NCBI GenBank assembly: GCA_035296445.1 | Contig: DATHAZ010000149.1 | Span: 48,331-72,330 of the forward strand | DNA length: 24,000 nucleotides | Origin: Pyrinomonadaceae bacterium | GTDB lineage: Bacteria; Acidobacteriota; Blastocatellia; Pyrinomonadales; Pyrinomonadaceae | Direction of reading: 5' to 3' | Shown here: positions 2,704-21,936 of the stretch, one piece after another | Numbering within the stretch: position 1 is the first letter of the stretch | Layout of the letters: the number at the start of each line of letters is the position of its first letter | Notes under the pieces: generated by a model | What the model was told of the DNA's origin: nothing | Databases searched by the model: none | What the model saw: the letters and a program-made list of their open reading frames with translations, nothing else | Program-made: the position numbers and the translations under genes

Positions 2704-4068
2704 ATGATGCTCAGTGTTAATAGATTACTCGGCCGCCGCTCTCCGGCGGACGCCGACGCGGAAAGTTTATTTGAGAACGCTGACGGCGCGAAAAAATCAC
2801 CGTCCTCGATCTACCTCCGACTCATCGAGGATGAATCGCCCGGCCGGGAGGTGGGTAAGCGCTCGTTCGGCGTCCGGCTCGGCGCTGTGTTCGCGACATT
2901 GATGGTGGGGTTGTCGGCCGGAGCGTCAAATGTATTTGCCGAAGATGATGACGACCTGGCTGCTTCTCCTTCAAAAGCCGGCTCTCACGACGACGATGAC
3001 GACGTAGACAACACGGCGACGGGAACCGGAACGGGCGTTAACACGGCGACGGCCACCGCCACTGATCCGGGCACGAATGACGCGACCGGAACGAACACCG
3101 GCACGGGAGTGGCGACGGCAACCGGCACGGGGACGCTCAACGGTCGCACCGCCACCGGGACGGCAACCGGCACGGGAGGGGTGACGGCGACCAACACGGC
3201 GACCGCCACTAATCTTAAAACCGGCGACCGCACCGCCACCCAGACGGGAACGGGAACGGGCGTCAACACGGCGACAGCCACCGCGACCGCTACGGCCGCC
3301 GGTAATGGCCGCAGGGGCAACAAGGGCAAGCAGGCCGGCAAGAACAAGGGTGGTGATGATAATGACGGCACCGCCACCGGGACGGCAACCGCCACCGGCG
3401 TCAACACCGCGACCAACACCGGCACGGCCACCGACCCCCGCACACAGGACGCGACGGCGACCCGCACCGGCACAGCCACGGGTAACAACACGCTGACAGC
3501 CACCGCGACCAGAACGGCTACGGGCACCAAACTCACAGCCACGGACGGCACGGCCACCAACACGGCGACGGCGACCGGCGTCAATACCGCCACGAACACC
3601 GCCACCGCCACAGACCCGTTGACGCAGGATCGCACCGCGACAGCGACGGCGACCGGAACCGGAGGGGCGACCGGCACGGCCACAAACACGGGCACCGTGA
3701 CCGGCACCCGGACGGCGACCGGCAGGACGCGAACTGCCACGGCGACGGGTACGGGCGGGGTCACGGCCACCAACACGGCGACGGCCACTAACCCTCGGAC
3801 TGTTGACGCTACGGCGACCAACACGGCCACCGCGACGGGCGCACAGACTGCGACTAACACCGCGACCGCGACCGGCACGGCAAACGGCGGAACTGCAACC
3901 GGCACTGCCACTGCGACCGGCGACACTACGGCCACGAACACGGCGACCGCCACCAACCCGGCAACGCTGGATACGACCGGAACGGGAACGGGCACCAAAG
4001 ACACAAAAACGGGAACACGCACCAAGGACACAAAGACGGGAACCGCGACCGGGACGACCGCCGCATAG
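2704..4068 (+). CDS. Secreted or membrane-anchored Thr/Ala/Gly-rich repeat protein (alternating T-X-T-X)
   Basis: AGGGGG RBS at 2692-2697, 6 nt before the ATG. N-terminal hydrophobic signal/anchor (LGAVFATLMVGLSAGASNVFA) followed by acidic runs (EDDDD, HDDDDDVD). About 360 aa of TATNTATAT[DN]PxTxDxTAT-type modules follow. A strong hairpin terminator lies downstream. Confidence 0.7.
   Translation: MMLSVNRLLGRRSPADADAESLFENADGAKKSPSSIYLRLIEDESPGREVGKRSFGVRLGAVFATLMVGLSAGASNVFAEDDDDLAASPSKAGSHDDDDDVDNTATGTGTGVNTATATATDPGTNDATGTNTGTGVATATGTGTLNGRTATGTATGTGGVTATNTATATNLKTGDRTATQTGTGTGVNTATATATATAAGNGRRGNKGKQAGKNKGGDDNDGTATGTATATGVNTATNTGTATDPRTQDATATRTGTATGNNTLTATATRTATGTKLTATDGTATNTATATGVNTATNTATATDPLTQDRTATATATGTGGATGTATNTGTVTGTRTATGRTRTATATGTGGVTATNTATATNPRTVDATATNTATATGAQTATNTATATGTANGGTATGTATATGDTTATNTATATNPATLDTTGTGTGTKDTKTGTRTKDTKTGTATGTTAA
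3004..4062 (+). repeat. Imperfect in-frame tandem codon repeats (ACS-GCS/GGS-ACS) inside the Thr-rich gene
   Basis: Recurring DNA strings such as accaacacggcgacggcc / accgccaccg / ggcgtcaacaccgcgacc. At protein level GVNTATxTxTATDPxTxD occurs about 4 times and GGVTATNTATATN about 2 times. Confidence 0.75.
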
Positions 4069-4146: not shown

Positions 4147-4190
4147 GAGGAGGGGCAAGGAATCAACCTTGCCCCTCCTCCTCGTTTGTG
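4147..4190 (+). terminator. Rho-independent terminator-like hairpin after the Thr-rich gene
   Basis: Perfect 14-bp inverted repeat gaggaggggcaagg (4147-4160) / ccttgcccctcctc (4167-4180) with a 6-nt loop, followed by the T-containing tail ctcgtttgtg. Confidence 0.6.
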
Positions 4191-4462: not shown

Positions 4463-5230
4463 ATGAGTCAACACACATCTCCGCGATGCCTGGTCCTGGG
4501 CGGCGCGGGTTACGTCGGGTCGGCGGTATGCAGGTTGTTATATGAGTGCGGAGCACGCCTCGCGTTTACTTATCACACGGGTGGCGAGACGGCGAGAGTT
4601 TTGGCCGAAGAGTTGAAGGGCAGCTTTCCGCTCCACGCCGATCTGGCGAGTTACGCGGAGACGAGGCGCGTGGTTCGTGAGGCCGGCGGGCTGCTGGGCG
4701 GTCTCGATGCGTTGATCCAGTGTGCGGGCACGGCGGGCGATCCCACTCTCTATACAACCCGCCACGCGGACGATCACGGTAAGTTCCTGGCTATCACGGA
4801 GGCCGAGTGGGACGCGATGTTCGATGTCACCGTTCGCAGCACCTTCGCGGCGTGTCAGGAGGCGACGCTCTTGATGAGTCGGAATCAGAAGAACGGCGGC
4901 AGTATCGTCATCGTCGGCTCGATTGACGGCATCAAGCCTTTGCCCGCGCCCGTTCACTACGCAGCCGGCAAAGGTGCGCTGCGCTCCCTCACGGAAGCCT
5001 TAGCCAAAGAGTTGGGGCGAGACAACATCCGCGTCAATCTGGTCGCCCCCGGAATCCTCGAAGGCGGCATCGCGCGCCACCTGGAAGCGCGGCTGTTGCA
5101 GGATTATTTAGAGCACTGCGCTTTAAAGCGAGCGGGGAAGAGCGACGAAGTGGCCGAAGTTATCGTCCGGCTCGCACTGGATAACACTTACGTGACGGGT
5201 CAATCAATCGTGCTCGACGGGGGTTTGTAG
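4463..5230 (+). CDS. Short-chain dehydrogenase/reductase (FabG-like), SDR no. 1
   Basis: Rossmann motif LVLGGAGYVGSAV, catalytic YAAGKGAL, NIRVNLVAPG, C-terminal GQSIVLDGGL. GAGG RBS 5 nt upstream of the ATG. Confidence 0.85.
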   Translation: MSQHTSPRCLVLGGAGYVGSAVCRLLYECGARLAFTYHTGGETARVLAEELKGSFPLHADLASYAETRRVVREAGGLLGGLDALIQCAGTAGDPTLYTTRHADDHGKFLAITEAEWDAMFDVTVRSTFAACQEATLLMSRNQKNGGSIVIVGSIDGIKPLPAPVHYAAGKGALRSLTEALAKELGRDNIRVNLVAPGILEGGIARHLEARLLQDYLEHCALKRAGKSDEVAEVIVRLALDNTYVTGQSIVLDGGL

Positions 5231-5314
5231 CGAGCGCGGCGACCCGCCCGCGAGCCACGCCGAGCCTGAGACGGCACGCGCTCCGGGGCGGCGGGTTCGG
5301 ATAATTGATCGCCG

Positions 5315-5343
5315 TTGACTTGCCCTGTGCCCTTCCTTATAGT
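5315..5343 (+). promoter_or_regulatory. Near-consensus sigma70-type promoter upstream of the radical-SAM operon
   Basis: TTGACT (5315-5320), exactly 17-nt spacer, TATAGT (5338-5343). It lies about 125 nt upstream of the ATG at 5467. Confidence 0.45.
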
Positions 5344-5466
5344 GTAGCCCGAATTGACGGCGCAGACTTCTCGGGGCGTAGTTCATTCAGCCCGTCTAAC
5401 AAGGGTTTAAGAACCGCCTGCCAGCCACCTCCAGACAAGTTCTTTCGCGCGCAGGAGAAACCCCGG

Positions 5467-6987
5467 ATGCCTACTAACCCCCGCGGAACCCGCCCTTATA
5501 CTTTTTACAAGATGACGCAGAGCACCTGCCCCGAATGCCTGAAAGTGGTGCAGGCGCAGGTCGTCTTCGAGGACAACAAAGTATTCTTCCTTAAGCACTG
5601 CCGCGAACATGGACACAGCAAAGCTCTGGTGAGCGAAGACGCGGAGTACTATCAGAACGCGTTCTCGTTCAGCCGGCCGGGCAGCGTCCCTTTGCAGTTC
5701 TCGACCGAGGTTAAAGAGGGGTGTCCGACCGATTGCGGTCTGTGCCCGTCTCATCAACAGCACACCTGTCTGCCGATCATCGAGGTCACGGACTACTGTA
5801 ATCTTGAGTGTCCGGTCTGCATCGTCAACAACCAGTATTCCAACCACATGTCGCTCGGCGATTTTCAAGAGATCATTGATCTGCTTGTGCGCCACGAGGG
5901 AGTGCTCGACACCGTCACACTGAGCGGCGGCGAGCCGACTTCGCACCCGCAGTTCTGGGAGTTGATTGACATCGCCACGCGCCCCGAGGTCGGGCGCGTC
6001 TCCGTCGTCACGAACGGCATACGCATCGCCCGCTCGAAAGAGTTCTGCGCGCGCCTCAAAGAAAAAAACGTCTACGTGATCCTCCAGTTTGACGGCTTCA
6101 CCGACGATGTGCAGAAAGCGATCCGCGGCGTTGACCTGATGGAGACGAAACACAGGGCGCTCGAACACCTCGGCGAATTCAACATCTCGACGCAGATCGC
6201 TTTCGTCCCGGCGCGCGGGGTGAACGAGCATCAGTTGGGAGACGCCGTGCGGCTGCTGCTCGAACGCGACCACATTCTGTCGCTCCTGATCCAGCCGTTC
6301 GCTGCCACGGGGCACGGCGGCGGCGTCTTTCCGCACGACCCTTTGGATCGCCTGACGACGCCGGGCGTCATCCGTGCCATTGACGAACAGACCGCCGGCC
6401 TCGTCGCGCGCGAAGACTTCATCCCGCTTCCCTGCTCGCACCCGCTCTGCGTTTCGCTGACCTACCTGCTCAAGCTCGACGACGGGAGCTATCTCCCTTT
6501 CCCGCGCTTCGTGGACATGCGCCGCCACCTCGACCTGTTCCAGCAGACGGCGACCCTCGAAGCGAACGAGCAGACGGAGGATGCGCTGCAAGGTGTGATC
6601 GGCGACTTGTGGAGCACCGCCGGTGAGATACCCGACAGCCAGAAGGTCATCAAAGCGCTCAGGCGCGCCCTGCTGGAGATGTTCCCCAACAAAAAAGTTG
6701 ACCGCCGTGAACTCATCCGCATCACGGAAAGGCAGGCCAAGACGATCTTCATCCACCACTACATGGACAGACACGACTTCGACATCGAGCGTCTGATGAA
6801 GTGCTGTCACCACTACCCGCAAGTTGACGGGCGGATCATGCCCGCGTGCGGATTCAACATGTTCCATCGCGGCGCGGCGAAAGGAGCCGGGACGCAGACT
6901 CCGCCGTGGGGGAAAGGGCCGTTCATCAAAGATGATTCGCCCGAACTCAAACTCTACGCAATCGGCCGCGAGCGCAACGTCACGTGA
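5467..6987 (+). CDS. Radical SAM enzyme, COG1964 / tetraether-lipid-synthase (Tes, GDGT-MAS)-like architecture, paralog 1
   Basis: AGGAG RBS at 5453-5457, 9 nt before the ATG; the listed start at 5305 is an upstream extension. N-terminal knuckle CPEC...x19...CREHG, second Cys motif GCPTDCGLCPSH, radical-SAM CNLECPVC (CX3CX2C), SAM-binding LSGGEPTSHP, C-terminal PCSHPLC and KCC...PAC motifs. Clear paralog of 11941-13431. Confidence 0.8.
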   Translation: MPTNPRGTRPYTFYKMTQSTCPECLKVVQAQVVFEDNKVFFLKHCREHGHSKALVSEDAEYYQNAFSFSRPGSVPLQFSTEVKEGCPTDCGLCPSHQQHTCLPIIEVTDYCNLECPVCIVNNQYSNHMSLGDFQEIIDLLVRHEGVLDTVTLSGGEPTSHPQFWELIDIATRPEVGRVSVVTNGIRIARSKEFCARLKEKNVYVILQFDGFTDDVQKAIRGVDLMETKHRALEHLGEFNISTQIAFVPARGVNEHQLGDAVRLLLERDHILSLLIQPFAATGHGGGVFPHDPLDRLTTPGVIRAIDEQTAGLVAREDFIPLPCSHPLCVSLTYLLKLDDGSYLPFPRFVDMRRHLDLFQQTATLEANEQTEDALQGVIGDLWSTAGEIPDSQKVIKALRRALLEMFPNKKVDRRELIRITERQAKTIFIHHYMDRHDFDIERLMKCCHHYPQVDGRIMPACGFNMFHRGAAKGAGTQTPPWGKGPFIKDDSPELKLYAIGRERNVT

Positions 6988-7041
6988 GCGTGCGCCCCGC
7001 AACACCGTCACCGTAGACGCTCTAAGACACCGTCACTCTGT

Positions 7042-8421
7042 ATGAGCAGCCAGCCCGCCACGCCGCATCTCTCGATCTCAAAATACGCGCGCCACGTCAA
7101 CCCCCAGTTCGTCAAACTGCTCGGCGTTTTCGGTTACGGGCGCGTGTTCGAGCGAGCGAGCGACGTGTGGGTGTGGGATCAACAGGGGCGTCTGTATCTG
7201 GACTTCCTCGCCGGTTTCGGGTCGGTCAACGTCGGCCATAATCACCCTCGTCTCGTGGCGCGCCTCCGAGATTTTCTCGCCGCCGAAAGAATGAACTTCT
7301 GCCACGTCGCGCCCTGCGCCGAGGCGGCGGAGTTGGCGGAGGCTTTAGCCGGGGCGGCGGGGACGCCTCTGCGGGTCTCTCTTTTTTCCAACAGCGGAGC
7401 GGAAGCCGTCGAAGCCGGGATGAAGCTGGCGCGAGCGGCGACCGGGCGCAAAGGATTCGTCTATTGCCAACACGGCTTCCACGGCACGACCCTCGGCACG
7501 CTCTCCGTCATGGGCGGCGAGCGTCTGCGCCAGCCCTTCGAGCCTTTGTTAAATGACTGCGACGCCATCCCGTTCGGAGATTTAGACGCGCTCAATCGTG
7601 CGCTGGCGCGCGGGCGTGTGGCGGGCTTCATCGTCGAACCCGTCCAGGGCGAAGGCGGTGTGGTCACGCCTCCGCAAGGTTACTTGAAGGAGGCGCAGGC
7701 ATTATGCCGCCGGCACGGGACGCTCCTCATCCTCGACGAAGTGCAGACGGGGCTGGGGAGAACCGGGACGATGTTCGCCTACGAGGCGGAAGGCTTCACC
7801 CCGGATGTGCTGGTCTTAGCGAAGTCGTTGAGCGGGGGCGTCGCGCCCATCGGCGCGACGCTGATTTCCGAGGATACGTTCGACCGCGCTTACGGCTCAC
7901 TCGCGCGGTTTGATCTGCACGGTTCGACGTTCGGCGGCAATGCGTTCTCGTGCGTCGCCGCGCTGGAGACCCTGCGGATCATCGCCGACGAGAATTTAGT
8001 CGCGGCTGCTGCTGCGCGCGGCGCACAGTTGTTGGCGGGTCTGCGCGAAAAACTTGCAGGCCACCCGCTCGTGCGCGACATACGCGGGCGCGGTTTGTTA
8101 GTGGGCATCGAACTCGGCCCGACCGACTCGGGCTGGATCAACAAAGTCGCGCCGTCGCTGGTGAATCTCGTGTCGAAGAATGTGTTCGGGCAATGGGCGG
8201 CGCTCAAGTTGCTGGAGCGCGGGTTGATCTGCCAACCGGCCTCGCAGGCTTGGAACATCCTGCGGCTGGAGCCGCCATTGACGGTGCGGGAGGCGGAGGT
8301 GGACGCGGCCGTCGAGATGGTGGCCGGCGCTCTGGGGGAGTATCGAGGCATGTCGCCGCTGTTAAAGGATGTCGCCGAGCGTCTGGGCGGACAGTGGCGG
8401 AAAGGTTGGGCGTTTGAATGA
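7042..8421 (+). CDS. Class-III (PLP-dependent) aminotransferase
   Basis: FLAGFGSVNVGHNHP, SNSGAEAVEAGMKLAR, LILDEVQTGLGRTGTMFAYE, and PLP-lysine context VLAKSLSGG. These are typical of the acetylornithine/GABA/ornithine-oxoacid aminotransferase family. Confidence 0.85.
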   Translation: MSSQPATPHLSISKYARHVNPQFVKLLGVFGYGRVFERASDVWVWDQQGRLYLDFLAGFGSVNVGHNHPRLVARLRDFLAAERMNFCHVAPCAEAAELAEALAGAAGTPLRVSLFSNSGAEAVEAGMKLARAATGRKGFVYCQHGFHGTTLGTLSVMGGERLRQPFEPLLNDCDAIPFGDLDALNRALARGRVAGFIVEPVQGEGGVVTPPQGYLKEAQALCRRHGTLLILDEVQTGLGRTGTMFAYEAEGFTPDVLVLAKSLSGGVAPIGATLISEDTFDRAYGSLARFDLHGSTFGGNAFSCVAALETLRIIADENLVAAAAARGAQLLAGLREKLAGHPLVRDIRGRGLLVGIELGPTDSGWINKVAPSLVNLVSKNVFGQWAALKLLERGLICQPASQAWNILRLEPPLTVREAEVDAAVEMVAGALGEYRGMSPLLKDVAERLGGQWRKGWAFE

Positions 8422-9452
8422 ATCTCTCGGAGTTGAGGCGCGACCTCCGGTTCACCACCAATCTGTTGCTGCGTCGCCCGTTCGACGTGCTGGTGCAGGT
8501 CACGAACCGCTGCAACATGAAGTGCAGCTTTTGTGACTTCTGGCCGCACGGCGCGACGGCGCGCGAGGAGTTGCAGGTTGCCGAATACCGGCGCGTGGCC
8601 TCGGAACTGGCGTCGCTCGGCTGCTTCATCGTATCCGTGGAAGGCGGCGAGCCGTTCGTGCGTCCAGACCTCGTGGAGATCGTCGGGGCATTCGCCGAGC
8701 GTGGACACCTGCCGGTCGTTTATACCAACGGCTGGTACGCGGACGCCGACAAGGCGCGCGCTCTGTTCGCCGCCGGACTGACGCAGGTCGGCATCTCCAT
8801 AGACTACCCGGAGGCGCGGCGTCACGACGCCAAACGCGGACTGGACGGAGCGTTCGCGCGCGCATGGGAGGCCGTCGAGGCTTTCCGCGAGGCCGCGCCA
8901 CACGGCGGAAGACAAGTACACGTGATGACCGTTCTGATGAAAGATAACCAGCGCGACATCGAAGAGTTGTTGCGTTTGAGCGCGCGCCGCCGCGTCGGGC
9001 ACTACGTCACCCTGCTCTCGACGGCCGGCTTCCGGCGTGGCCGCAGTAGTAGTAGCGCCGACCGTGCGCCGGAGGGGGCATTCGCAGACGAGTTGCTCGC
9101 GCTGCGACGCCGCTACAAACATTTTCGCGCGCCGAGCGATTACCTGCGGCTGGCCGCCTCCTACGCCGACGGCGGCGCGATGCCGACCTGTCGCGCCGGA
9201 GTACAGACCTTCAACATAGATCATCTGGGCAACGTCTCGGCCTGCATCGAGCGCATAGACAAGCCCGTGGGAAACGTCCGCGAAGAACATCTCGTCAGCC
9301 TGCACGCGAAGCTGCAAGGCGATGAAGAGCGTGCGGAAGTCGGAAGCTGCCAGAAGTGCTGTACGATCTGCCGGGGGATGGGGCAGACGTTCGGCGCGGG
9401 CGGGTCTCTGCGCGGCTGGTGGGAGTTGGCGACGCGTATGAGGTCACATTGA
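8418..9452 (+). CDS. Radical SAM enzyme with C-terminal SPASM/twitch-like Cys cluster
   Basis: VTNRCNMKCSFCDFW (CX3CX2C), VEGGEPF glycine motif. The C-terminus has CRAGVQTFNIDHLGNVSAC (GX4C) and CQKCCTICRG. The start overlaps the aminotransferase stop (ATGA at 8418-8421). Confidence 0.8.
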   Translation: MNLSELRRDLRFTTNLLLRRPFDVLVQVTNRCNMKCSFCDFWPHGATAREELQVAEYRRVASELASLGCFIVSVEGGEPFVRPDLVEIVGAFAERGHLPVVYTNGWYADADKARALFAAGLTQVGISIDYPEARRHDAKRGLDGAFARAWEAVEAFREAAPHGGRQVHVMTVLMKDNQRDIEELLRLSARRRVGHYVTLLSTAGFRRGRSSSSADRAPEGAFADELLALRRRYKHFRAPSDYLRLAASYADGGAMPTCRAGVQTFNIDHLGNVSACIERIDKPVGNVREEHLVSLHAKLQGDEERAEVGSCQKCCTICRGMGQTFGAGGSLRGWWELATRMRSH

Positions 9453-9463
9453 GCGGGGAGACG

Positions 9464-10216
9464 ATGTTGCTGCTGCGGCCACTGTTAAAAGACAAACGCG
9501 TGCTCGTGACGGGCGGGTCGCGCGGTCTGGGACGCGCCTTCTGTGAACGCTTCGCCGCGGAGGGCGCGCACGTCGCCTTCAACTACACGAGCGACGAGAG
9601 CGGCGCGCGCGAAACCCTCGGCCGCGTCGAGACGAGCGGGCAGAGGGCGCTCGCCTTCAGGGCGTCGGTGCTCGACTACGCCGCCCTCGAACAGATGGTC
9701 AGAGAGATCGAGAGCGCATGGGGCGGCATAGACGTTCTGGTTAACAACGCCGGAATAAGTCAGCCACTGCCGTTGGCGTTGATGGAGGAGGAGGACTGGG
9801 ACGCGGTGATGGACACGAACGCGAAGGGGCAGTTTCTCGCTGCGCGCGCGGTGTTGCGGGGCATGATTCGGCGTAAGGGCGGATGTATGCTCAATATCGG
9901 CTCACTGGCCGGGGTGCGCCTGATCGAAGCGCCGATTCATTACTGCGCCAGTAAGGCCGCGGTCAAGGGCTTCACGGAGGCGCTGTCTAAGGAGGTGGCG
10001 CGCTATAATATTCGCGTCAACTGTCTCGCGCCGGGGTTGCTCGATGACGGCGTCTCACAGAATCTACCCGAGTACCGGGTGGAGGAGTTTCTCAAACACG
10101 TCTCGCTGCACCGCAAAGGCACTCTGGAGGAGGTCGCGAGGTTCGCCGCCTTCCTCATCTCCGACAGGAACAGCTACATGAACGGCGCGACGGTCGTGAT
10201 AGATGGCGGCCTGTGA
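9464..10216 (+). CDS. Short-chain dehydrogenase/reductase (FabG-like), SDR no. 2
   Basis: GGGGAG RBS at 9455-9460 followed by the ATG at 9464. VLVTGGSRGLGRAF, NNAG, YCASKAAVKG, NIRVNCLAPG. The listed start at 9356 would overlap the previous gene by ~100 nt and adds non-SDR sequence. Confidence 0.85.
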   Translation: MLLLRPLLKDKRVLVTGGSRGLGRAFCERFAAEGAHVAFNYTSDESGARETLGRVETSGQRALAFRASVLDYAALEQMVREIESAWGGIDVLVNNAGISQPLPLALMEEEDWDAVMDTNAKGQFLAARAVLRGMIRRKGGCMLNIGSLAGVRLIEAPIHYCASKAAVKGFTEALSKEVARYNIRVNCLAPGLLDDGVSQNLPEYRVEEFLKHVSLHRKGTLEEVARFAAFLISDRNSYMNGATVVIDGGL

Positions 10217-10251
10217 GAAGCGTCCGTAATTGTGAAGGGGCTGTGAGGTAA

Positions 10252-11385
10252 ATGGTCGCAACCGCGTACCAGTCAAATCTCTTCGGGTGGATCGTCAGCC
10301 GACGTTATGACACGGCGTTCATCTTCGGCGGGGCGGCGGCGAGTTTGTGCGCGCCGTTGCTGGTCTGGTGGTACCCCGCCCTTTTATCTCCGCTGTTCTG
10401 GCTCTGGCTGTTCCTCTTCGACGGCACCCACAGTTGGGCTACTTACAGCCGCACCTACGCCGACCCGCAGTTCCGCAGAGAGAACCGTCGGCTCTTGTTC
10501 GGCAGTCTTGTCTTGTTCATCCCGGCGGCGGCGGCCATCTATTTATGGCAGGCCAGCGGCTCGCTCGCGCCCGTTTATCTGTTTCTGTTCATCGCGCAGT
10601 GGTGGAGTTATCACCACATCGTCAGGCAGCACTACGGGTTCGCTTCGATCTACGACCGCAAGGCGCGCGCCGACAGTACTTCTCACCAAGTCACCAAGTG
10701 GACTCTCTATCTTGGATTGTGGCTTCCTTACCTTTATTTCCTCCTGACGCACCCGCTGAATCGCCGGATCATGAGCGGCTCGCTCGACGGCGCGGCAGAC
10801 CTCCCGCCGGTCAATTACGGGTGGGTTGACACGCTGCTCGGATACGGCGCGCCAGCCCTCTCCGTCGCCCTCCTGCTCGGCCTCGTCGCGTACCACGTCC
10901 GGCGGTGGGGCGGTCTTCGGCAGAGATTTGAACTCAGCCCGGCGCTCGTCTTCACAGCGGCGTGCGTGCTGTTGTATTCCGTGATCTTTTACGTCATCGC
11001 GCCGCTTGAGCCGCTGCTGCCCGGCGCGCGCACGCCCGTGCAGAGCTTCATGCTCATGCAGGTCATGATCACGCTGTTTCACAACATCCAGTATCACGCC
11101 GTCGTGTGGCATTACAACCGTAACCGTCCGAGCCGCGCGCGTCTCAACCGTAACTTCTTCATCTACGCTCTGGCCGCAATGATCTTCTCTATCGGCTACG
11201 TCGCCGCCGCATGGTACACTACCGAATATCCGTCATGGCAGGGAACGATCCCGGAAAACATACTCGTCCCGGCGGCGTTCTGCGCGTGGTGGGGGTTGTC
11301 GCTGCACCATTACTACCTCGATCAGAAGATATGGCGCGTCAGCAAAACGCAGGAACTGCAACGCCATTTCGGCGTCACGGCCTGA
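10252..11385 (+). CDS. Polytopic integral membrane protein with four His clusters (family not recognised; possible membrane metallo-enzyme)
   Basis: About 8-9 hydrophobic segments. His clusters FDGTHSW, WWSYHHIVRQHYGF, LFHNIQYHAVVWHYN and LSLHHYYLDQKIWR lie at predicted helix ends. Confidence 0.6.
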   Translation: MVATAYQSNLFGWIVSRRYDTAFIFGGAAASLCAPLLVWWYPALLSPLFWLWLFLFDGTHSWATYSRTYADPQFRRENRRLLFGSLVLFIPAAAAIYLWQASGSLAPVYLFLFIAQWWSYHHIVRQHYGFASIYDRKARADSTSHQVTKWTLYLGLWLPYLYFLLTHPLNRRIMSGSLDGAADLPPVNYGWVDTLLGYGAPALSVALLLGLVAYHVRRWGGLRQRFELSPALVFTAACVLLYSVIFYVIAPLEPLLPGARTPVQSFMLMQVMITLFHNIQYHAVVWHYNRNRPSRARLNRNFFIYALAAMIFSIGYVAAAWYTTEYPSWQGTIPENILVPAAFCAWWGLSLHHYYLDQKIWRVSKTQELQRHFGVTA

Positions 11386-11975
11386 CGCCGTCCCTGCGCG
11401 CTCTGGGCGTGGTGCCCCTGGCTTTCTTCGTTCTTCATGCCCGTTACCACATCGGGCAGGGCACGGGCGGACATCTCCTGTGGGTGTGTACGGTCTCGAA
11501 CCTGCTGCTGGCGGCCGGCCTTTTTCTGGACTTGCCGATGTTGATCCGCGTCGCCGTCATGTGGCTCGTCACGGGACTGCCCCTCTGGGCGTGGGACATG
11601 TTTGAGCAGGGTATCGCGCCGGTCTCAAGTTTCCTCACACACTTCGGCGGTCTGGCGGTCGGGCTTATCGGTCTTTCCAGAGTGCGTGCCGCGCGCGGCC
11701 TCTGGGTCTGTGCTTTCATCTGGTATCTCACCTTGCAGCTCGCGGCGCGCCTGCTCACGCGCCCGGAGTTGAACGTCAACCTCGCACACGACATGCACGG
11801 CGGTTGGCGCGATTTATTCAACTCCTACTGGAGGTTCTCGGTCTTCATGAGTCTGGTAGTAGCCGTAGCCCTCTGGCTGACCGGGCTGGTAACGCTGAAA
11901 CTCTTTCCCCCGTCGGTGAATCATCCGAAGCGAGGTGCTTATGACGGCGACGACATCAGCCCGCAAACTGCATGA
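11331..11975 (+). CDS. Small polytopic membrane protein (unknown function)
   Basis: Five to six hydrophobic helices (VVPLAFFVLHA, LLWVCTVSNLLLAAGLFL, VAVMWLVTGLPLWAW, FGGLAVGLIGL, LWVCAFIWYLTLQLAA, FSVFMSLVVAVALWLTGLV). The start is uncertain: ATG 11331 overlaps the upstream gene by 55 nt, and GTG 11409/11412 are alternatives. The 3' end overlaps the next gene by ~35 nt. Confidence 0.5.
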   Translation: MARQQNAGTATPFRRHGLTPSLRALGVVPLAFFVLHARYHIGQGTGGHLLWVCTVSNLLLAAGLFLDLPMLIRVAVMWLVTGLPLWAWDMFEQGIAPVSSFLTHFGGLAVGLIGLSRVRAARGLWVCAFIWYLTLQLAARLLTRPELNVNLAHDMHGGWRDLFNSYWRFSVFMSLVVAVALWLTGLVTLKLFPPSVNHPKRGAYDGDDISPQTA

Positions 11976-13431
11976 CACGACGAGCCTCTGCGCCACCTGC
12001 AAGCGCGGCATCGAGGCGTCGTTGTGGGAGCGGGACGGCCGGATTTCCATGCGCAAGGCATGCCCCGAACACGGCGCGAGCGAGGTCTTGATCTCTTCGG
12101 ACGCCGCCTGGTATCACGAAACGCTGAACTATGCGGCGCGGACGATCCAGCCCCCGTTCGTCAAGAATGCGGTGGACAGGGGCTGTCCCTTCGACTGCGG
12201 CGCATGCGAGGCACACGAGCAGAAGTCATACCTCCCGGTCATCCCCATCACGAGCGCGTGCAACCTTGATTGTCCGGTCTGCTATACGATCAACAAGAAT
12301 GAGGATGCGTTCCACATCTCGCTCGAAGAGTTCGCGGCTATCCTCGATGTCGTGCGCCGCAACGATCCGGGGCTGAAGATAATCAACCTGACGGGCGGCG
12401 AGCCGACACTTCACCCCCAATTGACGAAGATCGTAGAGATGTGTCACGCAGCCGGAATCCACCGCGTCACCATCAGCACGCACGGATTGACCTTCATCAA
12501 CAACGAAGCGTTGCTCGACGAACTGGCCGTCCTCGGCGCGCGCATCGTCCTCTCTTTCAACTCTTTCGACGAGGCGGTCAACTATCGCATGGTCGGCGCG
12601 AGGGCGGCGAAGGGTAAGTTGAAAGTCCTCGAAAAGCTGGCGCGGCACAACGTAGACACGACGCTCATCCCGGTGCTGGCCGTCGGCTACAACGACCGGG
12701 AGATCGGCGATCTCGTGAACCTCGCGCTCTCTCAAGACTTCATCCGCAGTCTGGAAATTCACACGATGACCTTCACGGGTCAGAGCGGCACAGACTTCGA
12801 CCCCGCAGCGCGCCTGACCACGCCCGACGTGCTGCGCCGGATCGAAGAGCAGACCGGCGGCCGCATCCGCATGGGCGACTTCGTGCCCTCGCCGTGCGCC
12901 CACCCGCTCTGTTATCAAACCTGCTACCTGCTCCAGACGCCTGCGAGCGGCTTCATCCCCTTCACACGGTTCATGTCTAAGGAGACGATCCGCCAACTGC
13001 TGACGGACAACCTTTACATGGAGCCCGGCCCGCTCATGGAGTCCGCATTGCAGGACGTAGCCATGCAGTTGTGGGCGTCGGAGTTGGACGACGAGACGGG
13101 GGAAGCCGTCCTGACGACGCTCAAGAACTTAATCAAGCGCCTCTTCCCGGCCGTGCCTCTGCCTTACCACGAGCGGCAGATAATCGCCGAGCGCGCCGCC
13201 AAGACGATCTACATACACTCGCACATGGATGAGGAGAATTTCGACACCGACCGCATCCGTCAATGCTGCGTGGGCGTGCCCTCGGCCGACGGCGGCAACG
13301 TGCCGACGTGCGCCTACAACATCCTATACCGCGAGCGCGACTCGCGATTTTCGGCCAGAGACAGCGCGCCGCTCTCCACCTACGCCGGCGGGCGCAAAGA
13401 GCTGGTGCAGATCAGGCGTCCGGGCAGGTGA
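11941..13431 (+). CDS. Radical SAM enzyme, COG1964 / Tes(GDGT-MAS)-like architecture, paralog 2
   Basis: CATC...x19...CPEHG knuckle, GCPFDCGACEAH, CNLDCPVC, LTGGEPTLHP, PCAHPLC, AKTIYIHSHMDEENFD, QCC...PTC. It is collinear with 5467-6987 in every motif. The start is ATG 11941 or GTG 11935. Confidence 0.8.
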   Translation: MTATTSARKLHDTTSLCATCKRGIEASLWERDGRISMRKACPEHGASEVLISSDAAWYHETLNYAARTIQPPFVKNAVDRGCPFDCGACEAHEQKSYLPVIPITSACNLDCPVCYTINKNEDAFHISLEEFAAILDVVRRNDPGLKIINLTGGEPTLHPQLTKIVEMCHAAGIHRVTISTHGLTFINNEALLDELAVLGARIVLSFNSFDEAVNYRMVGARAAKGKLKVLEKLARHNVDTTLIPVLAVGYNDREIGDLVNLALSQDFIRSLEIHTMTFTGQSGTDFDPAARLTTPDVLRRIEEQTGGRIRMGDFVPSPCAHPLCYQTCYLLQTPASGFIPFTRFMSKETIRQLLTDNLYMEPGPLMESALQDVAMQLWASELDDETGEAVLTTLKNLIKRLFPAVPLPYHERQIIAERAAKTIYIHSHMDEENFDTDRIRQCCVGVPSADGGNVPTCAYNILYRERDSRFSARDSAPLSTYAGGRKELVQIRRPGR

Positions 13432-13433
13432 CG

Positions 13434-13910
13434 ATGCGATTCTTTCTGGTTGACCGCGTGGATGAATTGAAGCCGGGGGAGATGATCCGCGGCGTCAAGA
13501 ACGTGACGCTCAGCGAAGACTTTTTGCAGGATCACTTCCCTTCCCATCCCCTCTTTCCCGGCACATTAATGATCGAGGCGTTGGCGCAGTTGGGCGGATG
13601 CCTCGTCGAGGCCACCTTCAATACCAGCGACGACAACGTCAGGCGCGCGGTGCTCGCGCAGGTTGACCGCGCCAGATTTCACGAGGCCGTGAGGCCGGGC
13701 GATCAACTGAAGATAGTGTGCCGCCTTGTCTCGATGCTCGAAGGCGCGGCGCAGGTTAAGGGCGAAGCCAGCGTGGGCGAACGCGAGGTCGCCCGCGCGA
13801 CGCTGCTCTTCGCGCTGCGCGCCGTGGGGTCGGAACGGATACACCGGCAGCGGAGGGAAATTTACGAGATATGGACGCGCCACTTGAATCTGGACTTCAC
13901 GCTCCGCTAG
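13434..13910 (+). CDS. FabZ/FabA-like 3-hydroxyacyl-ACP dehydratase (hot-dog fold)
   Basis: MRFFLVDRV..., then the signature HFPSHPLFPGTLMIEALAQLGG. The ATG lies 2 nt after the stop of the upstream radical-SAM gene. Confidence 0.8.
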   Translation: MRFFLVDRVDELKPGEMIRGVKNVTLSEDFLQDHFPSHPLFPGTLMIEALAQLGGCLVEATFNTSDDNVRRAVLAQVDRARFHEAVRPGDQLKIVCRLVSMLEGAAQVKGEASVGEREVARATLLFALRAVGSERIHRQRREIYEIWTRHLNLDFTLR

Positions 13911-14812
13911 TTGTCACCGGAGTCGGCTCTCTCGTGCTCGCGCCCGCGCGGGCGGGCGAAGAAGACCCGTCCGTTGACGCCGCGCGCGAAGTCGCGCCGT
14001 GGCTCAAGTCGAAGAAGATGCGCAAGTTCATGGGCAAACAGGATCAACTCGCGGTGGCCGCCGCCGGCCGCGCCGCGAAAGACGCCGCCCTCGACGAGCG
14101 AACCTTGCGTGAACGCACCGGGCTTTACCTGTGCGTCGGTCATATCCCCTTCGAGCGCGCACAGATTGAAGCGATAGCCCGCGGCTCGATTCAAGCGGAC
14201 GAGTTTTGCATGGAGCGGTTTTCCACCACGGCCTTCGAGCGCGTCAACCCTCTGCTCACGTTTCGCTGTCTGCCGAACATGCCCGCCTTCCACGTCTCGC
14301 TCAACCTCGGGATGCGCGGGCCATACTTCGTCACCTACCCTTGCGCGGGACAGTTCTACCTCGCGCTTGAGTGCGCGACGGCCGCACTGGAAAGCGGCGA
14401 GGTTGATGTCGCGCTCGTGGGAGCGGTCGCCGACCAGAACAATTTTCTCGTCGCATACCATTTCCGCCGAACGTCGGATTCGCGAAAACTGACCGCTTGG
14501 GAAGGCATAGACGCGGGCGCGTTCCTGTGTCTGGAGACACGGGACGGGGCGAGGCGACGCAATGCAGAGGTCAAGGCCGAACTGCTCTCGTCGGAGGTTA
14601 GCTACGCCGCGCCGGACTCGTGGGGCGAGTCGCGGCCATTCGCGGAGTCGGTCACTTTCGCGGGCGTGAAAACGGTGGCCGCGAAGCCTACGGCGGCCTC
14701 GCTTCCCGTGAGCCTGAGCCATGCCGCAGGCGGCGCGGGCAAGGGCGAGTTCGTCCATCAACTGTCCACGGCGGGCGGCGTCGAGGCGACGAGCCGTTGG
14801 AGGGTCGTGTGA
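13871..14812 (+). CDS. Truncated beta-ketoacyl synthase-like protein (chain-length-factor-like KS partner)
   Basis: KS N-terminal-like LVVTGVGS, RKFMGKQDQLAV (compare RKMDxF in FabF), LPNMPAFHVSLNLGMRGPYF, and the YPCAGQ segment at the active-site position. It is only 313 aa and lacks a recognisable HGTGT/HGTST His motif. It overlaps the FabZ-like gene by 40 nt and ends in a GTGA overlap with the KS. Confidence 0.65.
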   Translation: MDAPLESGLHAPLVVTGVGSLVLAPARAGEEDPSVDAAREVAPWLKSKKMRKFMGKQDQLAVAAAGRAAKDAALDERTLRERTGLYLCVGHIPFERAQIEAIARGSIQADEFCMERFSTTAFERVNPLLTFRCLPNMPAFHVSLNLGMRGPYFVTYPCAGQFYLALECATAALESGEVDVALVGAVADQNNFLVAYHFRRTSDSRKLTAWEGIDAGAFLCLETRDGARRRNAEVKAELLSSEVSYAAPDSWGESRPFAESVTFAGVKTVAAKPTAASLPVSLSHAAGGAGKGEFVHQLSTAGGVEATSRWRVV

Positions 14813-16053
14813 GTCGCCGTAGACGCGTCGTTATCACAGGCGTCGGCATTGTCTCCCCGCTCGGCCACGAGTTGACCGAGTTTCGCCGCAACCTTCTCTC
14901 CGGCCTATCGGCGGCCGCGCCGATCACCGTGTTCGACCCCGCGCGCCTTCCGACCAGAATCGCGGCGCAGGTGGATGCGTCGTCTCTGCCGACTCAAACC
15001 AGGGATCGCAAAATAGCTTTCGGCCTCGCCGCGACGCGTGCGGCCATCGCCGACGCGGACGGCGGCGATGCCCTGCCCGTGGCGGAATACTACGCCGGAA
15101 CGGGCGGCGGGCTGAGTCTCGGCATCGGACTCGAACTTTTCTCGATGCCCGACATGGTGAAGTTTCTTGAGCGCGAAGAAATTCCGGCGGGCGTCCATGC
15201 GCAGACGTTTTTGCAGACGCCTTCGGACGTGTGCGCCCACTTGATCTGCCGCGAGCACGACTTCTTGCGCGCTCCGCCACTCGTCCACGTCTCCGCATGT
15301 GCGGCGGCGACCGACGCCATTGGCACAGCCTTTCGCATGATCCGCGACGGCAGGCGCAGGTGGATGCTGGCCGGAGGCGCGGATTCCATGATCAACCCGA
15401 TGGGCGTCGGAGGATTTTGCGCCATCGAAGCGACCACGCGCCGCAACCACGAGCCGCGACGCGCATCGCGCCCGTTCGACCGTGACCGCGACGGGTTTCT
15501 ACTGGGAGAAGGCGCGGGGCTGCTCGTGCTCGAAACGCTCGACGATGCACAGGCCAGGGGCGCGCGCATCTACGGCGAGGTGTCGGGCTATGGGAATTCG
15601 TTCGATGCCTACGGCATCAGCGAGCCGCACCCGGAAGGCGAAGGCGCGCTCCTCGCAATGCAACGCGCTCTCGCGGATGCCGGATTGCATCCCGAAGACA
15701 TCTCTTACATCAATGCCCATGGGACATCCACGCCGAAGAACGACGTGGTTGAGACGCGCGCGATTCGCCGCCTGCTCGGTCGCCACGCGGAGCGCGTGCC
15801 CGTCAGTTCGACCAAGTCCATGATCGGCCATCTCATTTCCGCCGCCGGGGCGGTCGAACTGGCCGCCGCCATCCTCTGCGCTGAGACCGGCTGGGTGCAT
15901 CCGACGATCAACCTCGAACGCCCCGACCCCGCCTGTGATCTGGATTACGTCGCGGAGGGCGCGCGCCGGGTGAAGGTGGAAACGATTCTCAAGAACTCAT
16001 TCGCATTCGGGGGGCAGAACGCATCTCTGGTGATACGGATGGCGGGATGTTGA
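14809..16053 (+). CDS. Beta-ketoacyl-ACP synthase II-like (FabF-type KS)
   Basis: GTG start at 14809 overlapping the upstream stop (GTGA). RVVITGVGIVSPLG, active-site HVSACAAATDAIG, RPFDRDRDGFLLGEGAGLLVLE, NAHGTSTPKND, SSTKSMIGHLISAAG, NSFAFGGQNASLV. Confidence 0.9.
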   Translation: MSRRRRVVITGVGIVSPLGHELTEFRRNLLSGLSAAAPITVFDPARLPTRIAAQVDASSLPTQTRDRKIAFGLAATRAAIADADGGDALPVAEYYAGTGGGLSLGIGLELFSMPDMVKFLEREEIPAGVHAQTFLQTPSDVCAHLICREHDFLRAPPLVHVSACAAATDAIGTAFRMIRDGRRRWMLAGGADSMINPMGVGGFCAIEATTRRNHEPRRASRPFDRDRDGFLLGEGAGLLVLETLDDAQARGARIYGEVSGYGNSFDAYGISEPHPEGEGALLAMQRALADAGLHPEDISYINAHGTSTPKNDVVETRAIRRLLGRHAERVPVSSTKSMIGHLISAAGAVELAAAILCAETGWVHPTINLERPDPACDLDYVAEGARRVKVETILKNSFAFGGQNASLVIRMAGC

Positions 16054-16793
16054 GCGGGAAAACCATCGTCGTCACGGGCGCGGCGGGCGGTATCGGGCGC
16101 GCGATTGCGCTGGCGTGCGCGAGAGAAGGCGCGAGCGTGGGCGTCAACTATTTGACGAACTGCGCCGGGGCGGAAAAACTCGTTGACGAATTGAACCGTG
16201 CCTCCGAAGGCCGCGCCTTCGCCTTGCGGTTCGACGTGCGGAAACCCGACTCGATCACCGCCGCGTGTCTCCCGCTGCTCGAAGAGGTCAAGCGCGTAGA
16301 CGGGTGGGTCAATAACGCCGGCGTTAACTTACCGGGCTTATTGATGTCCCAAACCGAAGAGATGATCGAAGAACAGATCGCGGTCAACATCAAAGGCGCG
16401 ATCTACTGTAGCCGTTTCATCCTGCCCTACATGGTGCGGCAGCGGCGCGGCGCTCTGATCAACATCGGGTCGGTGGTCAGCATGCGACCCTCGCCGGGGC
16501 AGGCTGTCTACGCAGCCACGAAAGGCGCGCTCGCCGCGTTGACACGCGCTCTGGCCGCGGAGTACGGACGGAAGGGCATACGCGTCAACTGCGTGGAGCC
16601 CGGCCCCGTCGAAACGAAGATGTTCGGGGGCACGCGGCAACTGGCGGGCGATGAGGTAAAAAATCGAATCCCGTTACGGAAATTTGGCGCGCCCGGAGAG
16701 GTGGCCGAGTTGGTGGCCTTCCTGCTCTCGGAACGCGCCTCCTTCATCACAGGCGGCGTCTTCGCGGCCGACGGCGGTTACTCCGTCGGGTGA
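16047..16793 (+). CDS. 3-oxoacyl-ACP reductase-like SDR (FabG-type), SDR no. 3
   Basis: The ATG overlaps the KS stop (ATGTTGA). IVVTGAAGGIGRAI, NNAG, YAATKGALAALTRALA, IRVNCVEPGPV. Confidence 0.9.
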   Translation: MLSGKTIVVTGAAGGIGRAIALACAREGASVGVNYLTNCAGAEKLVDELNRASEGRAFALRFDVRKPDSITAACLPLLEEVKRVDGWVNNAGVNLPGLLMSQTEEMIEEQIAVNIKGAIYCSRFILPYMVRQRRGALINIGSVVSMRPSPGQAVYAATKGALAALTRALAAEYGRKGIRVNCVEPGPVETKMFGGTRQLAGDEVKNRIPLRKFGAPGEVAELVAFLLSERASFITGGVFAADGGYSVG

Positions 16794-16836
16794 CTGTGGG
16801 AGTTCAGAGACGACGGGTAGAAAGAGACCACAGGCA

Positions 16837-17256
16837 ATGATTGAAAGAGATGAAATCTTCCGCGTCGTGCGCGGCTGCGTCGGCAAAAGCCTTGAGATTG
16901 ACGAAGAGGATGTGAAACTCGATTCACGCCTGATCAGCGAACTGGGGGCGGACTCCCTCGACTTTCTCGACATCGTCTTCAGGCTCGAAGAGAGTTTTGG
17001 GCTTAAGCTGCGCAACGCCGAACTGGATGTGCTGACCCGTGCGGAATTCACCGGCGCAACGAACGAGGACGGTTACATCCCGGCCGAAACCGTGGCGCAA
17101 TTTCGTCAATGGCTGCCCGCGCTCAGACTCGCGGAGCGCGACGACCGCATCAGCCCGCGTGACATCTACTCTTACATCACGACGGAGACGCTGGTGATCC
17201 TGATTGAACGGAAACTCGCCGAATCGGGCGGCGTTCAGAGTTCAACCGACCAGTAA
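16837..17256 (+). CDS. Acyl carrier protein with ~60-aa C-terminal extension
   Basis: Phosphopantetheine attachment motif LGADSLDFLDIVFRLEE. The protein is 139 aa from ATG 16837, whereas canonical ACPs are about 80 aa. Confidence 0.8.
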   Translation: MIERDEIFRVVRGCVGKSLEIDEEDVKLDSRLISELGADSLDFLDIVFRLEESFGLKLRNAELDVLTRAEFTGATNEDGYIPAETVAQFRQWLPALRLAERDDRISPRDIYSYITTETLVILIERKLAESGGVQSSTDQ

Positions 17257-18255: not shown

Positions 18256-18618
18256 CTACTGAGTTTCAGCACTCTTTCCGTGCGCATTCGACAAAAGGCA
18301 TGCGCCGTGAAACCTCAGCACGTCGAAACGCAGTTCTTCTCCCACTCTCACGGCGCGCATCTCCAGCGTGCCCGCGCCGCGCGAACCCGACAGGCGAACG
18401 CGCAGGGAAGCCCGCCTCCCGCCTCCTCTCACCCCTCCGCTCACGAAGAAACCTGCCCGCACAGGCTCGCCGATCAGCGCGACGACCTCCGGGGAACGAC
18501 TCGCAATCTCCACCCCTGCGCGGTAAGCCGCACTCGATCTCAGGGACAGCATGATCGAGAAGGTGAGAATGGCCGCGAAGGCGACGGAGGCGGCAATAAC
18601 GAGTAGCGCAATTATCAT
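18256..18618 (-). CDS. Coa1-like (cytochrome oxidase assembly factor 1 family) small membrane-anchored protein
   Basis: N-terminal TM helix IIALLVIAASVAFAAILTFSIML, then the pattern SxAY..A......PEVV.LIGEPV.AGFFVSG....G...A.L.V.LSGS.GAGTL typical of bacterial Coa1-domain proteins. Competing shadow ORFs exist in this GC-rich stretch. Confidence 0.5.
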   Translation of the reverse strand: MIIALLVIAASVAFAAILTFSIMLSLRSSAAYRAGVEIASRSPEVVALIGEPVRAGFFVSGGVRGGGRRASLRVRLSGSRGAGTLEMRAVRVGEELRFDVLRFHGACLLSNAHGKSAETQ

Positions 18619-20785: not shown

Positions 20786-20887
20786 CAAATGTGACATTCT
20801 GTATTGAAGGAATCGCTGAACCGCTTTACAGTGTGCCACCATCCGCCTCAATTTGTAACGCTCAACGCCATAAGGAGGAAAGTTCAA

Positions 20888-21735: not shown

Positions 21736-21809
21736 ATTAGGTTCGGAAGGAGTCTGAATATAAATCACTGTGCAGCACGGTAGATTTAATAGACTTCAGG
21801 AATCAGAAG

Positions 21810-21865: not shown

Positions 21866-21936
21866 GAGAAGCCCAATGTCGTGGGAATCGCCCAAACTCT
21901 TTGGATGAACCGAGTCGCCTTTATTTACGACGCCGC

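Follow-up and report, generated by a model that had tools for sequence, protein, structure and literature searches.

Two Tes/GDGT-MAS-family radical SAM genes in a conserved polyketide/fatty-acid-type operon of a Pyrinomonadaceae bacterium

Two Tes-family genes and their metal sites

The window considered here, i.e., the whole stretch of DNA that was analyzed, covers 24,000 nucleotides of contig DATHAZ010000149.1 (positions 48,331 to 72,330, forward strand) from the Pyrinomonadaceae assembly GCA_035296445.1, and the coordinates below count from its first nucleotide. Positions 4463-17256 of the window form one operon of 13 genes on the + strand, two of which, named P1 and P2, encode relatives of the archaeal tetraether lipid synthase Tes, or GDGT-MAS (GDGT, glycerol dialkyl glycerol tetraether; MJ0619). 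This radical S-adenosylmethionine (SAM) enzyme is the sole characterized member of its family and couples two inert methyl groups, which ranks among the hardest reactions of lipid chemistry.

5467-6987, + strand: P1, a Tes/GDGT-MAS-family radical SAM enzyme of the P1 type, 506 aa
11941-13431, + strand: P2, a Tes/GDGT-MAS-family radical SAM enzyme of the P2 type, 496 aa, with the same four metal-site motifs as P1

Two paralogous open reading frames (ORFs) had been claimed at these positions by an earlier note made from the letters of the window, and both are there. Their boundaries agree with gene calls made independently on the identical metagenome contigs L001, by JGI, and L002, and the identical P1 sequence is also recorded in a JGI metagenome and an SRA run. 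The ATG of P1 at 5467 is nested in a longer ORF initiated by a TTG at 5305. P1 and P2 aligned by BLASTP from end to end, with 168 identities over 491 positions (34%), 16 gap positions and an E-value of 7e-104, far beyond chance, and the six motif blocks quoted in the earlier note were all found, in the same order, in both translations.

Both proteins contain the Pfam domains Zn_ribbon_HMPTM and Radical_SAM, the former being the rubredoxin-like ribbon PF23545 (E 6.9e-18 in P1 and 1.7e-15 in P2) and the latter detected with E 2e-20 in P1 and 3e-24 in P2. Among all PDB sequences the best match was GDGT-MAS (7TOL; E 2.7e-69 for P1 and 3.3e-59 for P2), and 7TOL and 7TOM were the sole strong matches, all other radical SAM structures being worse than 1e-7. 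In pairwise comparisons with MJ0619, the sequence of which was rebuilt from HMMER alignments and is without residues 1-20, 342-346 and the C-terminus, the identity was 31% for P1 (E 2e-73) and 29% for P2 (E 2e-63). An AlphaFold2 (AF2) model was built for P1 from a 69-sequence alignment, with a predicted local distance difference test score (pLDDT) of 90.6 and a predicted template-modelling (TM) score of 0.91. It matched 7TOM and 7TOL with a TM-score of 0.77-0.78 over 493-497 aligned columns (E 2e-41), corresponding to the full-length four-domain fold, and the next structural match, SkfB (TM-score 0.36), covered the radical SAM core alone.

The metal centers described for Tes are a rubredoxin-like Fe bound by three Cys and one His, an N-terminal cluster, [4Fe-4S]N, with three Cys and one His, the radical SAM cluster, and a C-terminal cluster, [4Fe-4S]C, with three Cys and one Met, which transiently holds the first substrate radical via a C-S bond (PMC13459092). 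The corresponding residues were searched for in an alignment of P1, P2, their relatives and MJ0619, and in a second alignment of 69 clade members. In P1 numbering, the candidate ligands of the rubredoxin-like site (CxxC...CxxH, in the alignments that include MJ0619) are C21, C24 and C45, which are invariant, and H48, conserved in at least 90%; those of [4Fe-4S]N are C86, C90, C93 and H96 in the motif GCPxDCGxCxxH, invariant in the 69 clade members and in MJ0619. The CX3CX2C cysteines of the radical SAM cluster (C111, C115, C118) and the GGEPT motif (G154-T158) are invariant as well. For the C-terminal site the sequence alignments give the candidates H325, C328, M433, C446, C447 (at least 90%) and C461, all conserved, with the Cys and Met positions aligning with Cys and Met of MJ0619. 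Absence of the auxiliary Cys ligands was what the earlier note had named as evidence against its family proposal; since they are conserved, every motif being invariant or nearly so, the Tes-family assignment stands, in agreement with the Pfam domains, the match to 7TOL and the fold of the P1 model. As judged from sequence, P1 and P2 are full-length homologues of GDGT-MAS/Tes.

Equivalence to Tes, on the other hand, was not borne out. The NCBIfam Tes equivalog model NF045702, with a cut-off of 450 bits, gave 268.7 bits for P1 and 255.2 bits for P2, and equally good scores were obtained with the TrsS model NF045646 (277.8 bits for P1, aligned end to end, and 250.9 bits for P2, with a cut-off of 490 bits). 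Relatives from Archangium (273 bits) and Janthinobacterium (241 bits) scored similarly against the Tes model. By these model scores, P1 and P2 are not Tes orthologues.

The operon and its relatives

Besides P1 and P2, the locus comprises the features listed below, where SDR stands for short-chain dehydrogenase/reductase, KS for ketosynthase, CLF for chain length factor, KR for ketoreductase, DH for dehydratase, ACP for acyl carrier protein and MDR for medium-chain dehydrogenase/reductase.

4147-4180, + strand: terminator-like hairpin after the upstream gene, with a 14-bp stem including 10 G-C pairs
4463-5230, + strand: SDR1, a classical YxxxK SDR, FabG-like, first gene of the operon (Pfam adh_short_C2, E 3.4e-45)
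7042-8421, + strand: class-III (omega) aminotransferase (Pfam Aminotran_3, E 2.7e-93)
8418-9452, + strand: third radical SAM enzyme, SPASM/twitch type, with a CNMKCSFC motif and a C-terminal Cys cluster
9464-10216, + strand: SDR2, FabG-like, YxxxK, 44-73% identical to homologues in the clade-A loci with flank (see below)
10252-11385, + strand: MEM1, a polytopic all-alpha membrane protein of 377 aa from an unannotated family
11331-11975, + strand: MEM2, a small membrane protein directly upstream of P2 and overlapping it
13434-13910, + strand: FabZ/FabA-fold DH with an ApeI-like Pfam domain (Pfam FabA; NCBIfam FabZ, 117 bits)
13934-14812, + strand: truncated, degenerate KS-like (CLF-like) partner of 292 aa, N-terminal KS domain only
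14809-16053, + strand: FabF-type KS (NCBIfam FabF, 424 bits; PDB 1J3N, 340 bits)
16047-16793, + strand: FabG-like KR
16837-17256, + strand: dedicated ACP of 139 aa, last gene of the operon (ATG at 16837), with a DSL (GADSLD) phosphopantetheine motif and a C-terminal extension
17242-18222, - strand: MDR/quinone-oxidoreductase-family gene, convergent, overlapping the 3' end of the ACP gene by 15 nt

The strong hairpin at 4147-4180 is likely the upstream operon boundary, and from P1 onward the genes overlap or lie at most 70 bp apart. The KS retains by sequence an intact Cys-His-His triad (SACAAA, NAHGTST, IGHLISAAG), and the precomputed annotation of an identical DH gene reads FabA plus ApeI-like. 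The genes of a reducing type II polyketide synthase (PKS) or type II fatty acid synthase (FAS)-like module, namely KS/CLF, KR, DH and ACP, are thus all found in the operon. The earlier note had described a private FAS set wired to P1 and P2: the set is real and on the same strand, whereas the name did not hold, and reducing type II PKS/FAS-like, of the KS/CLF kind, is the better term because no recognizable enoyl reductase is present. The same neighborhood also holds the aminotransferase and the third radical SAM enzyme. In the KS plus CLF-like pair, the FabG-like KR, the ApeI-like DH, the stand-alone ACP and the lack of an obvious enoyl reductase, the operon resembles the aryl-polyene/ishigamide reducing type II PKS, from which it differs in having no aryl-starter genes; conversely, the described clusters of that type are not known to us to contain a Tes-family radical SAM enzyme, an omega-aminotransferase or a SPASM radical SAM enzyme.

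Among the remaining products, the aminotransferase is nearest to the PigE transaminase domain (NCBIfam 466 bits, cut-off 850; PDB 4PPM, E 5.4e-97) and to putrescine aminotransferase, both omega-transaminases for aliphatic carbonyls or amines. The stop codon of the aminotransferase lies in a 4-nt overlap with the gene of the SPASM radical SAM enzyme, and relatives keep these two genes as a pair. SDR1 scored below the cut-off of all NCBIfam FabG models, and its homologues in related loci are 31-55% identical. MEM1 matched no Pfam or NCBIfam family, its homologues are all labelled hypothetical, and its AF2 model (pLDDT 91) gave no significant fold match in the PDB; it has the invariant residues D20, H60, R67, T68, D71, H122, Q126, H127, Y128, H277, Q280, Y281, H353 and D357, and its homologues recur as an accessory component on contigs bearing P1- or P2-type genes; MEM1 may be a new membrane enzyme. 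In the place of MEM2, relatives have a weakly similar small unannotated gene upstream of their P2-type genes. The convergent MDR gene, the one candidate for the role, could act as an enoyl reductase; its membership is uncertain, because it is not conserved in related clusters.

In order to place P1 and P2 among their relatives, genomes were scanned with the motif patterns CNL[DET]CP[IV]C[IY] and GCP[TFY]DCG[LAP]C, which returned at least 80 loci from named GTDB genomes, and every operon protein of the window was compared with these listed loci by tblastn. The resulting tree does not include the near-archaeal acidobacterial homologues of Koribacter and Solibacter, as the patterns miss MJ0619-like sequences (CNLNCPICF). 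A neighbor-joining tree rooted on MJ0619 as the single outgroup separated a clade A, containing P1 and P2 (98% bootstrap), and within it a P1-type and a P2-type subclade (100% each), from the other bacterial homologues, termed clade B, the monophyly of which is weak (55%).

Clade A is characterized by its neighbors. Among the matches listed, 16 of the 17 Tes-like genes at least 40% identical to P1 or P2 have an SDR2 homologue (44-73% identity), and the lone exception, L031, lies on a sequence that is cut off about 600 bp past the gene; in the clade-A loci listed, no neighbor of the Tes-like genes is better conserved than SDR2. Where enough flank is available, the listed clade-A loci also include a FabZ-like DH, a KS with or without a CLF-like partner, a KR and an ACP, and many of the clusters carry in addition a PigE-like omega-aminotransferase and a SPASM radical SAM enzyme. 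On the evidence of sequence and neighborhood, P1, P2 and their relatives are a separate clade defined by gene context. No paper in the searchable literature was found to describe a Tes-family enzyme within a KS/ACP cluster; this is an undescribed conserved biosynthetic context for a known enzyme family.

The hosts of clade A, among the matches listed, are Burkholderiales, Turneriella, Kofleriaceae, Archangiaceae, Polyangiaceae, other Myxococcota, Planctomycetaceae, Syntrophomonadaceae and Muiribacteriota, and the make-up of the clusters varies among them. According to precomputed gene calls on complete genomes and long contigs, Archangium violaceum, with its cluster around 6.83 Mb of CP069396, has a P1-type gene only, two KS/CLF pairs, an SDR and no aminotransferase; Janthinobacterium sp. 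CG23_2 has only a P2-type gene; the betaproteobacterium GR16-43, around 2.89-2.91 Mb of CP019169, has both types and two aminotransferases, and a 4.8-Mb Turneriella metagenome-assembled genome (MAG) carries the same cluster. Three Tes-like paralogues occur in several MAGs, where an SDR comes after each of them and a class-III aminotransferase often does too; in relatives with three (L087, L089, L012, L013, L020), the third paralogue type is followed by SDR, class-III aminotransferase and SDR, which makes a repeated radical SAM-SDR-aminotransferase module. Most relatives (L003, L004, L005, L006, L088, L089) place a nitroreductase-family flavoprotein gene between KR and ACP, and several add LPG_synthase_TM (PF03706), an FAD oxidoreductase, a fatty-acid hydroxylase or a PlsC-type acyltransferase, all of which are absent from the window. 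Such a distribution resembles the pattern expected of a biosynthetic cluster that moves horizontally. As a side observation, P1 is 80% identical to a protein of a Burkholderiales MAG (L007) and shares 78-81% identity with Acidobacteriota- and Eremiobacterota-labelled proteins, a similarity across phyla that points either to recent horizontal cluster transfer or to binning errors.

P1-type and P2-type proteins occur together on many metagenome contigs, and either type can occur singly (L003, L006); they are therefore not obligate partners. Mean identity is 0.64 within the P1 type, 0.59 within the P2 type and 0.34 between the types, and 31 positions are at least 90% conserved inside each type yet occupied by different residues in the two. 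Several of these positions directly adjoin candidate ligands (P1/P2 residues): after the radical SAM motif (I119/Y115, V120/T116), around HxxC (S324/A320, V329/Y325), flanking the conserved Met (Y432/H428, R435/E431) and flanking the CC pair (K445/Q441, H448/V444). Together with the two separate subclades, these type-specific positions support the old duplication with sub-functionalization that had been proposed for the pair. Because the paralogy is old and the conserved residues near the cluster sites differ between P1 and P2, the two most likely catalyze different, non-redundant steps. Separately, the P1-type proteins of Myxococcota have an N-terminal extension of about 80 residues that resembles a second copy of the zinc ribbon (CPTC...CNTCG) preceding the canonical one; examples are P0069 (L003:10001-11710) and many P1-type proteins of 560-640 aa.

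Clade B belongs to the same family and length class, is 35-39% identical to P1 and likewise falls below the Tes and TrsS cut-offs; unlike clade A, it shows the KS/ACP/SDR context in none of about 60 loci among the matches listed. Its listed hosts are Flavobacteriia, Chitinophagia, Paenibacillus, cyanobacteria, Chloroflexota, Dormibacterota, Planctomycetota and Kitasatospora. In 36 of 48 clade-B loci (within L017-L086), an Lgt-like (PF01790) membrane protein of about 244 aa is encoded directly upstream (e.g., L040:9180-9914), with a Pfam match to LGT, prolipoprotein diacylglyceryl transferase, at E 9.5e-18. This conserved pairing with an enzyme family that handles phosphatidylglycerol hints that clade-B enzymes may act on glycerolipids.

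Possible chemistry and alternative explanations

The operon can be read as a dedicated pathway in which Tes-type radical chemistry would tailor an acyl or polyketide chain of the operon's own making, the product being amino-lipid-like, a reading to which we give an even chance of being correct. From the genes and their context we infer the substrate, the bond formed and the product as follows. The FabF-type KS with its degenerate CLF-like partner, the KR, the FabZ/ApeI-like DH and the ACP would build a private acyl or (poly)enoyl/hydroxyacyl chain, on which P1 and P2 would act while it is ACP-bound or already lipid-linked. Each of the two enzymes would cleave SAM reductively and abstract hydrogen from poorly activated carbons, and the C-terminal [4Fe-4S] cluster would probably hold the first radical equivalent, as it does in GDGT-MAS, enabling a C-C bond to be made by ring closure or cross-linking, or a related two-electron radical oxidation. 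Interconversion of hydroxyl, keto and amine groups would fall to the SDRs, together with the PigE-like omega-aminotransferase and the SPASM radical SAM enzyme, and would lead to a modified amino-lipid-like molecule as the end product.

Formation of a C-C bond is less certain than this overall picture. The more specific proposal, that the operon stands for a widely distributed and hitherto unrecognized system in which the Tes-type enzymes, with one to three diverged paralogues in each cluster, form C(sp3)-C bonds on the private KS/CLF-KR-DH-ACP chain and thus give carbocyclic, cross-linked or dimeric amino-lipids, a class undescribed in bacteria, is put forward tentatively, and we consider it possible rather than probable. 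By analogy it would parallel what has been hypothesized for ladderane biosynthesis. The anammox ladderane Cluster I (KustE3603-3608) shares with the operon an ACP of its own, an unusual FabZ, an active FabF next to an inactive CLF-like FabF, and at least one radical SAM enzyme proposed for C-C bonds on the chain as it grows; it differs in that its radical SAM enzyme is B12-dependent and not of the Tes type, in a phytoene-desaturase-like (PDH-like) gene and in the absence of an aminotransferase. Pfam and NCBIfam scans detected neither a B12-binding radical SAM protein nor a PDH-like gene among the operon genes, and, owing to these two components of Cluster I, the likeness is one of analogy and not of membership.

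Several points weigh against the proposed pathway. The chemistry of P1 and P2 is extrapolated from one archaeal enzyme of about 30% identity, the published roles of bacterial Tes homologues being proposals (PMC8941075, PMC11868695). The bacterial proteins are, moreover, without a segment of about 20 residues present in MJ0619 directly before the HxxC motif, and for this reason their substrate pocket may differ from that of MJ0619. That the genes are physically linked is no proof of an action of the radical SAM enzymes on an ACP-bound chain. Among the operon genes no enoyl reductase of the FabI, FabK, FabV or FabL type was found, the three SDRs being all YxxxK proteins with FabG as best match, and no thioesterase, reductase or acyltransferase for off-loading was recognized in the window, so that the chain may be saturated, polyene or hydroxylated. 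The extent of clade A, among the matches listed, is a lower bound from a motif-biased scan. Finally, the repeated radical SAM-SDR-aminotransferase module fits C-H functionalization for amination equally as well as C-C coupling.

This last point leads to the strongest alternative, in which the modules of radical SAM enzyme, SDR and, in part, aminotransferase would functionalize unactivated or allylic C-H positions (through radical desaturation or dehydrogenation, or through C-S chemistry at the auxiliary cluster) and make no C-C bond; an SDR and a transaminase could afterwards introduce keto and amino groups, yielding a polyamino or amino-hydroxy lipid. The order Tes-like gene, SDR, class-III aminotransferase, SDR, repeated up to three times in relatives, would be in line with this, as would the position of SDR2 as the most conserved neighbor and an aminotransferase of the omega type acting on aliphatic carbonyls; for Tes itself, published discussion includes a route that forms an olefin as well as an adduct between substrate and sulfur (PMC13459092). 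However, C-C bonds are what the sole characterized member of the Tes family makes, the candidate ligands of the C-terminal cluster, to which a part in coupling is ascribed, show strict conservation, the minimal clusters, as in Archangium, pair a Tes-like gene with an SDR and have no aminotransferase, and no hydratase is evident for such a route. We regard it as credible, though unlikely.

Less probable still is that P1, P2 or both couple two fatty acyl tails, for instance iso-C15 to iso-diabolic acid or to precursors of branched GDGTs (brGDGTs), with KS, KR, DH and ACP supplying the chains. The host belongs to the Pyrinomonadaceae, i.e., Acidobacteria subdivision 4, members of which produce iso-diabolic acid, and Mss, the bacterial membrane-spanning lipid synthase with experimental support (Thermotoga/Thermoanaerobacter; Sahonero-Canavesi 2022), was not detected in Acidobacteria, which calls for an alternative pathway (PMC13159169). 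Tes homologues of bacteria have been described before, with a suggested part in making membrane-spanning lipids (PMC8941075, PMC10087280), the role in brGDGT synthesis being a proposal (PMC8941075, PMC11868695, PMC10087280), and P1 and P2 retain all the candidate Tes metal ligands and, in the P1 model, the Tes fold. Mss is likewise a radical SAM enzyme with a postulated Tes-like C(sp3)-C(sp3) coupling of lipid tails; unlike P1 and P2, it is only remotely related to Tes according to its authors and is so far known only from anaerobes, a separation that we take from its published description.

Against tail coupling, clade A occurs in Myxococcota, Burkholderiales, Janthinobacterium, Turneriella, Planctomycetota, Syntrophomonadaceae and Muiribacteriota, a patchy distribution that does not track the known producers of iso-diabolic acid or brGDGTs, and we know of no report of membrane-spanning lipids from these taxa. 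Tes homologues were found in just 3 of 14 acidobacteria that produce iso-diabolic acid (PMC13159169), and the homologues of Koribacter (42%) and Solibacter (40%), compared with MA_1486, are closer to archaeal Tes (PMC8941075) than P1 (31%) and P2 (29%) are to MJ0619. Both window proteins score below the Tes equivalog cut-off, the two types each occur alone (L003, L006), and a tail-to-tail dimerization would account neither for two or three diverged paralogues nor for the omega-aminotransferases, the SPASM radical SAM enzyme and the KS/CLF pair. Compared with archaeal Tes (7TOL, 7TOM; NF045702), with which they share the rubredoxin-like ribbon, the N-terminal [4Fe-4S] domain, the radical SAM core and a putative C-terminal [4Fe-4S] domain, P1 and P2 are bacterial and belong to a group in which two or three diverged paralogues lie in a KS/CLF-KR-DH-ACP-aminotransferase cluster and not beside genes for isoprenoid ether lipids. 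The earlier note had left two options, and context and distribution favor its second, a different radical chemistry for tail tailoring, over bacterial membrane-spanning lipid synthesis.

A role as pterin or cofactor methyl-transfer enzymes, as in the legacy annotation of MJ0619, or as TrsS orthologues unrelated to the neighboring lipid genes is very improbable: many homologues bear the JGI name 7,8-dihydro-6-hydroxymethylpterin dimethyltransferase and the TrsS model aligns end to end with P1 (277.8 bits), but the pterin annotation of MJ0619 has been superseded by its structural and biochemical demonstration as GDGT-MAS/Tes (7TOL; PMC13459092), the TrsS scores are well under the 490-bit cut-off with no in-frame UGA in the P1 or P2 ORF, and no pterin or methanopterin gene lies close by, the tight linkage across phyla being with KS/ACP genes. 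In the literature found, TrsS is only listed, as a selenoprotein of unknown function. Three further candidates were rejected. For a cispentacin (Amc)-type system the NCBIfam matches to AmcE, AmcF and AmcB were weak, far below cut-off and well below the FabZ and FabF scores; for a biotin-like (BioA/BioB) function of the aminotransferase and radical SAM pair, BioA scored lower than PigE and ArgD, and the radical SAM enzyme is of the SPASM type; membership in a ladderane cluster was set aside on the B12-dependent radical SAM enzyme and the PDH-like gene mentioned above.

Clade A keeps every candidate metal site of Tes within a polyketide/fatty-acid-type cluster and could give tractable access to radical C-C or C-H reactions that are new and to lipids of an unknown class; cultured carriers are available in Archangium, Janthinobacterium and the betaproteobacterium GR16-43, and the repeated radical SAM-SDR-aminotransferase module suggests a general way of decorating alkyl chains without O2-dependent C-H activation. 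Furthermore, metagenomic surveys take BLAST matches to Tes (E <1e-50, identity >20-30%) as markers of potential brGDGT producers. Because P1 passes these thresholds (31%, E 2e-73) and P2 is borderline (29%, E 2e-63), clade A and the Lgt-linked clade B may inflate or mislead such inferences, and sorting the bacterial Tes homologues by clade and context would make the question of the brGDGT producers more sharply testable.

Flanking genes

Upstream of the hairpin at 4147-4180, the ORF at 2704-4068 (454 aa) consists of extreme low-complexity repeats rich in Thr, Ala, Gly and Asn (runs such as TATGTGT and NTATATN), with a local GC content of 0.70, an AT skew of 0.66 and an N-terminal hydrophobic segment that suggests secretion or anchoring. 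Downstream, two further genes on the - strand, besides the MDR gene, converge on the operon, one of the Coa1 family (18256-18618) and one for a GNAT acetyltransferase (19100-19603). GNAT genes are also found near the cluster in L087 and L088, so that an N-acylation of an amine product is conceivable. The GC content is 0.59-0.65 over the operon and 0.46-0.53 beyond 20 kb. The ORFs of the region 20000-24000 (20804-21535 and 22640-23890) received no confident family assignment, and the region may be a foreign island.

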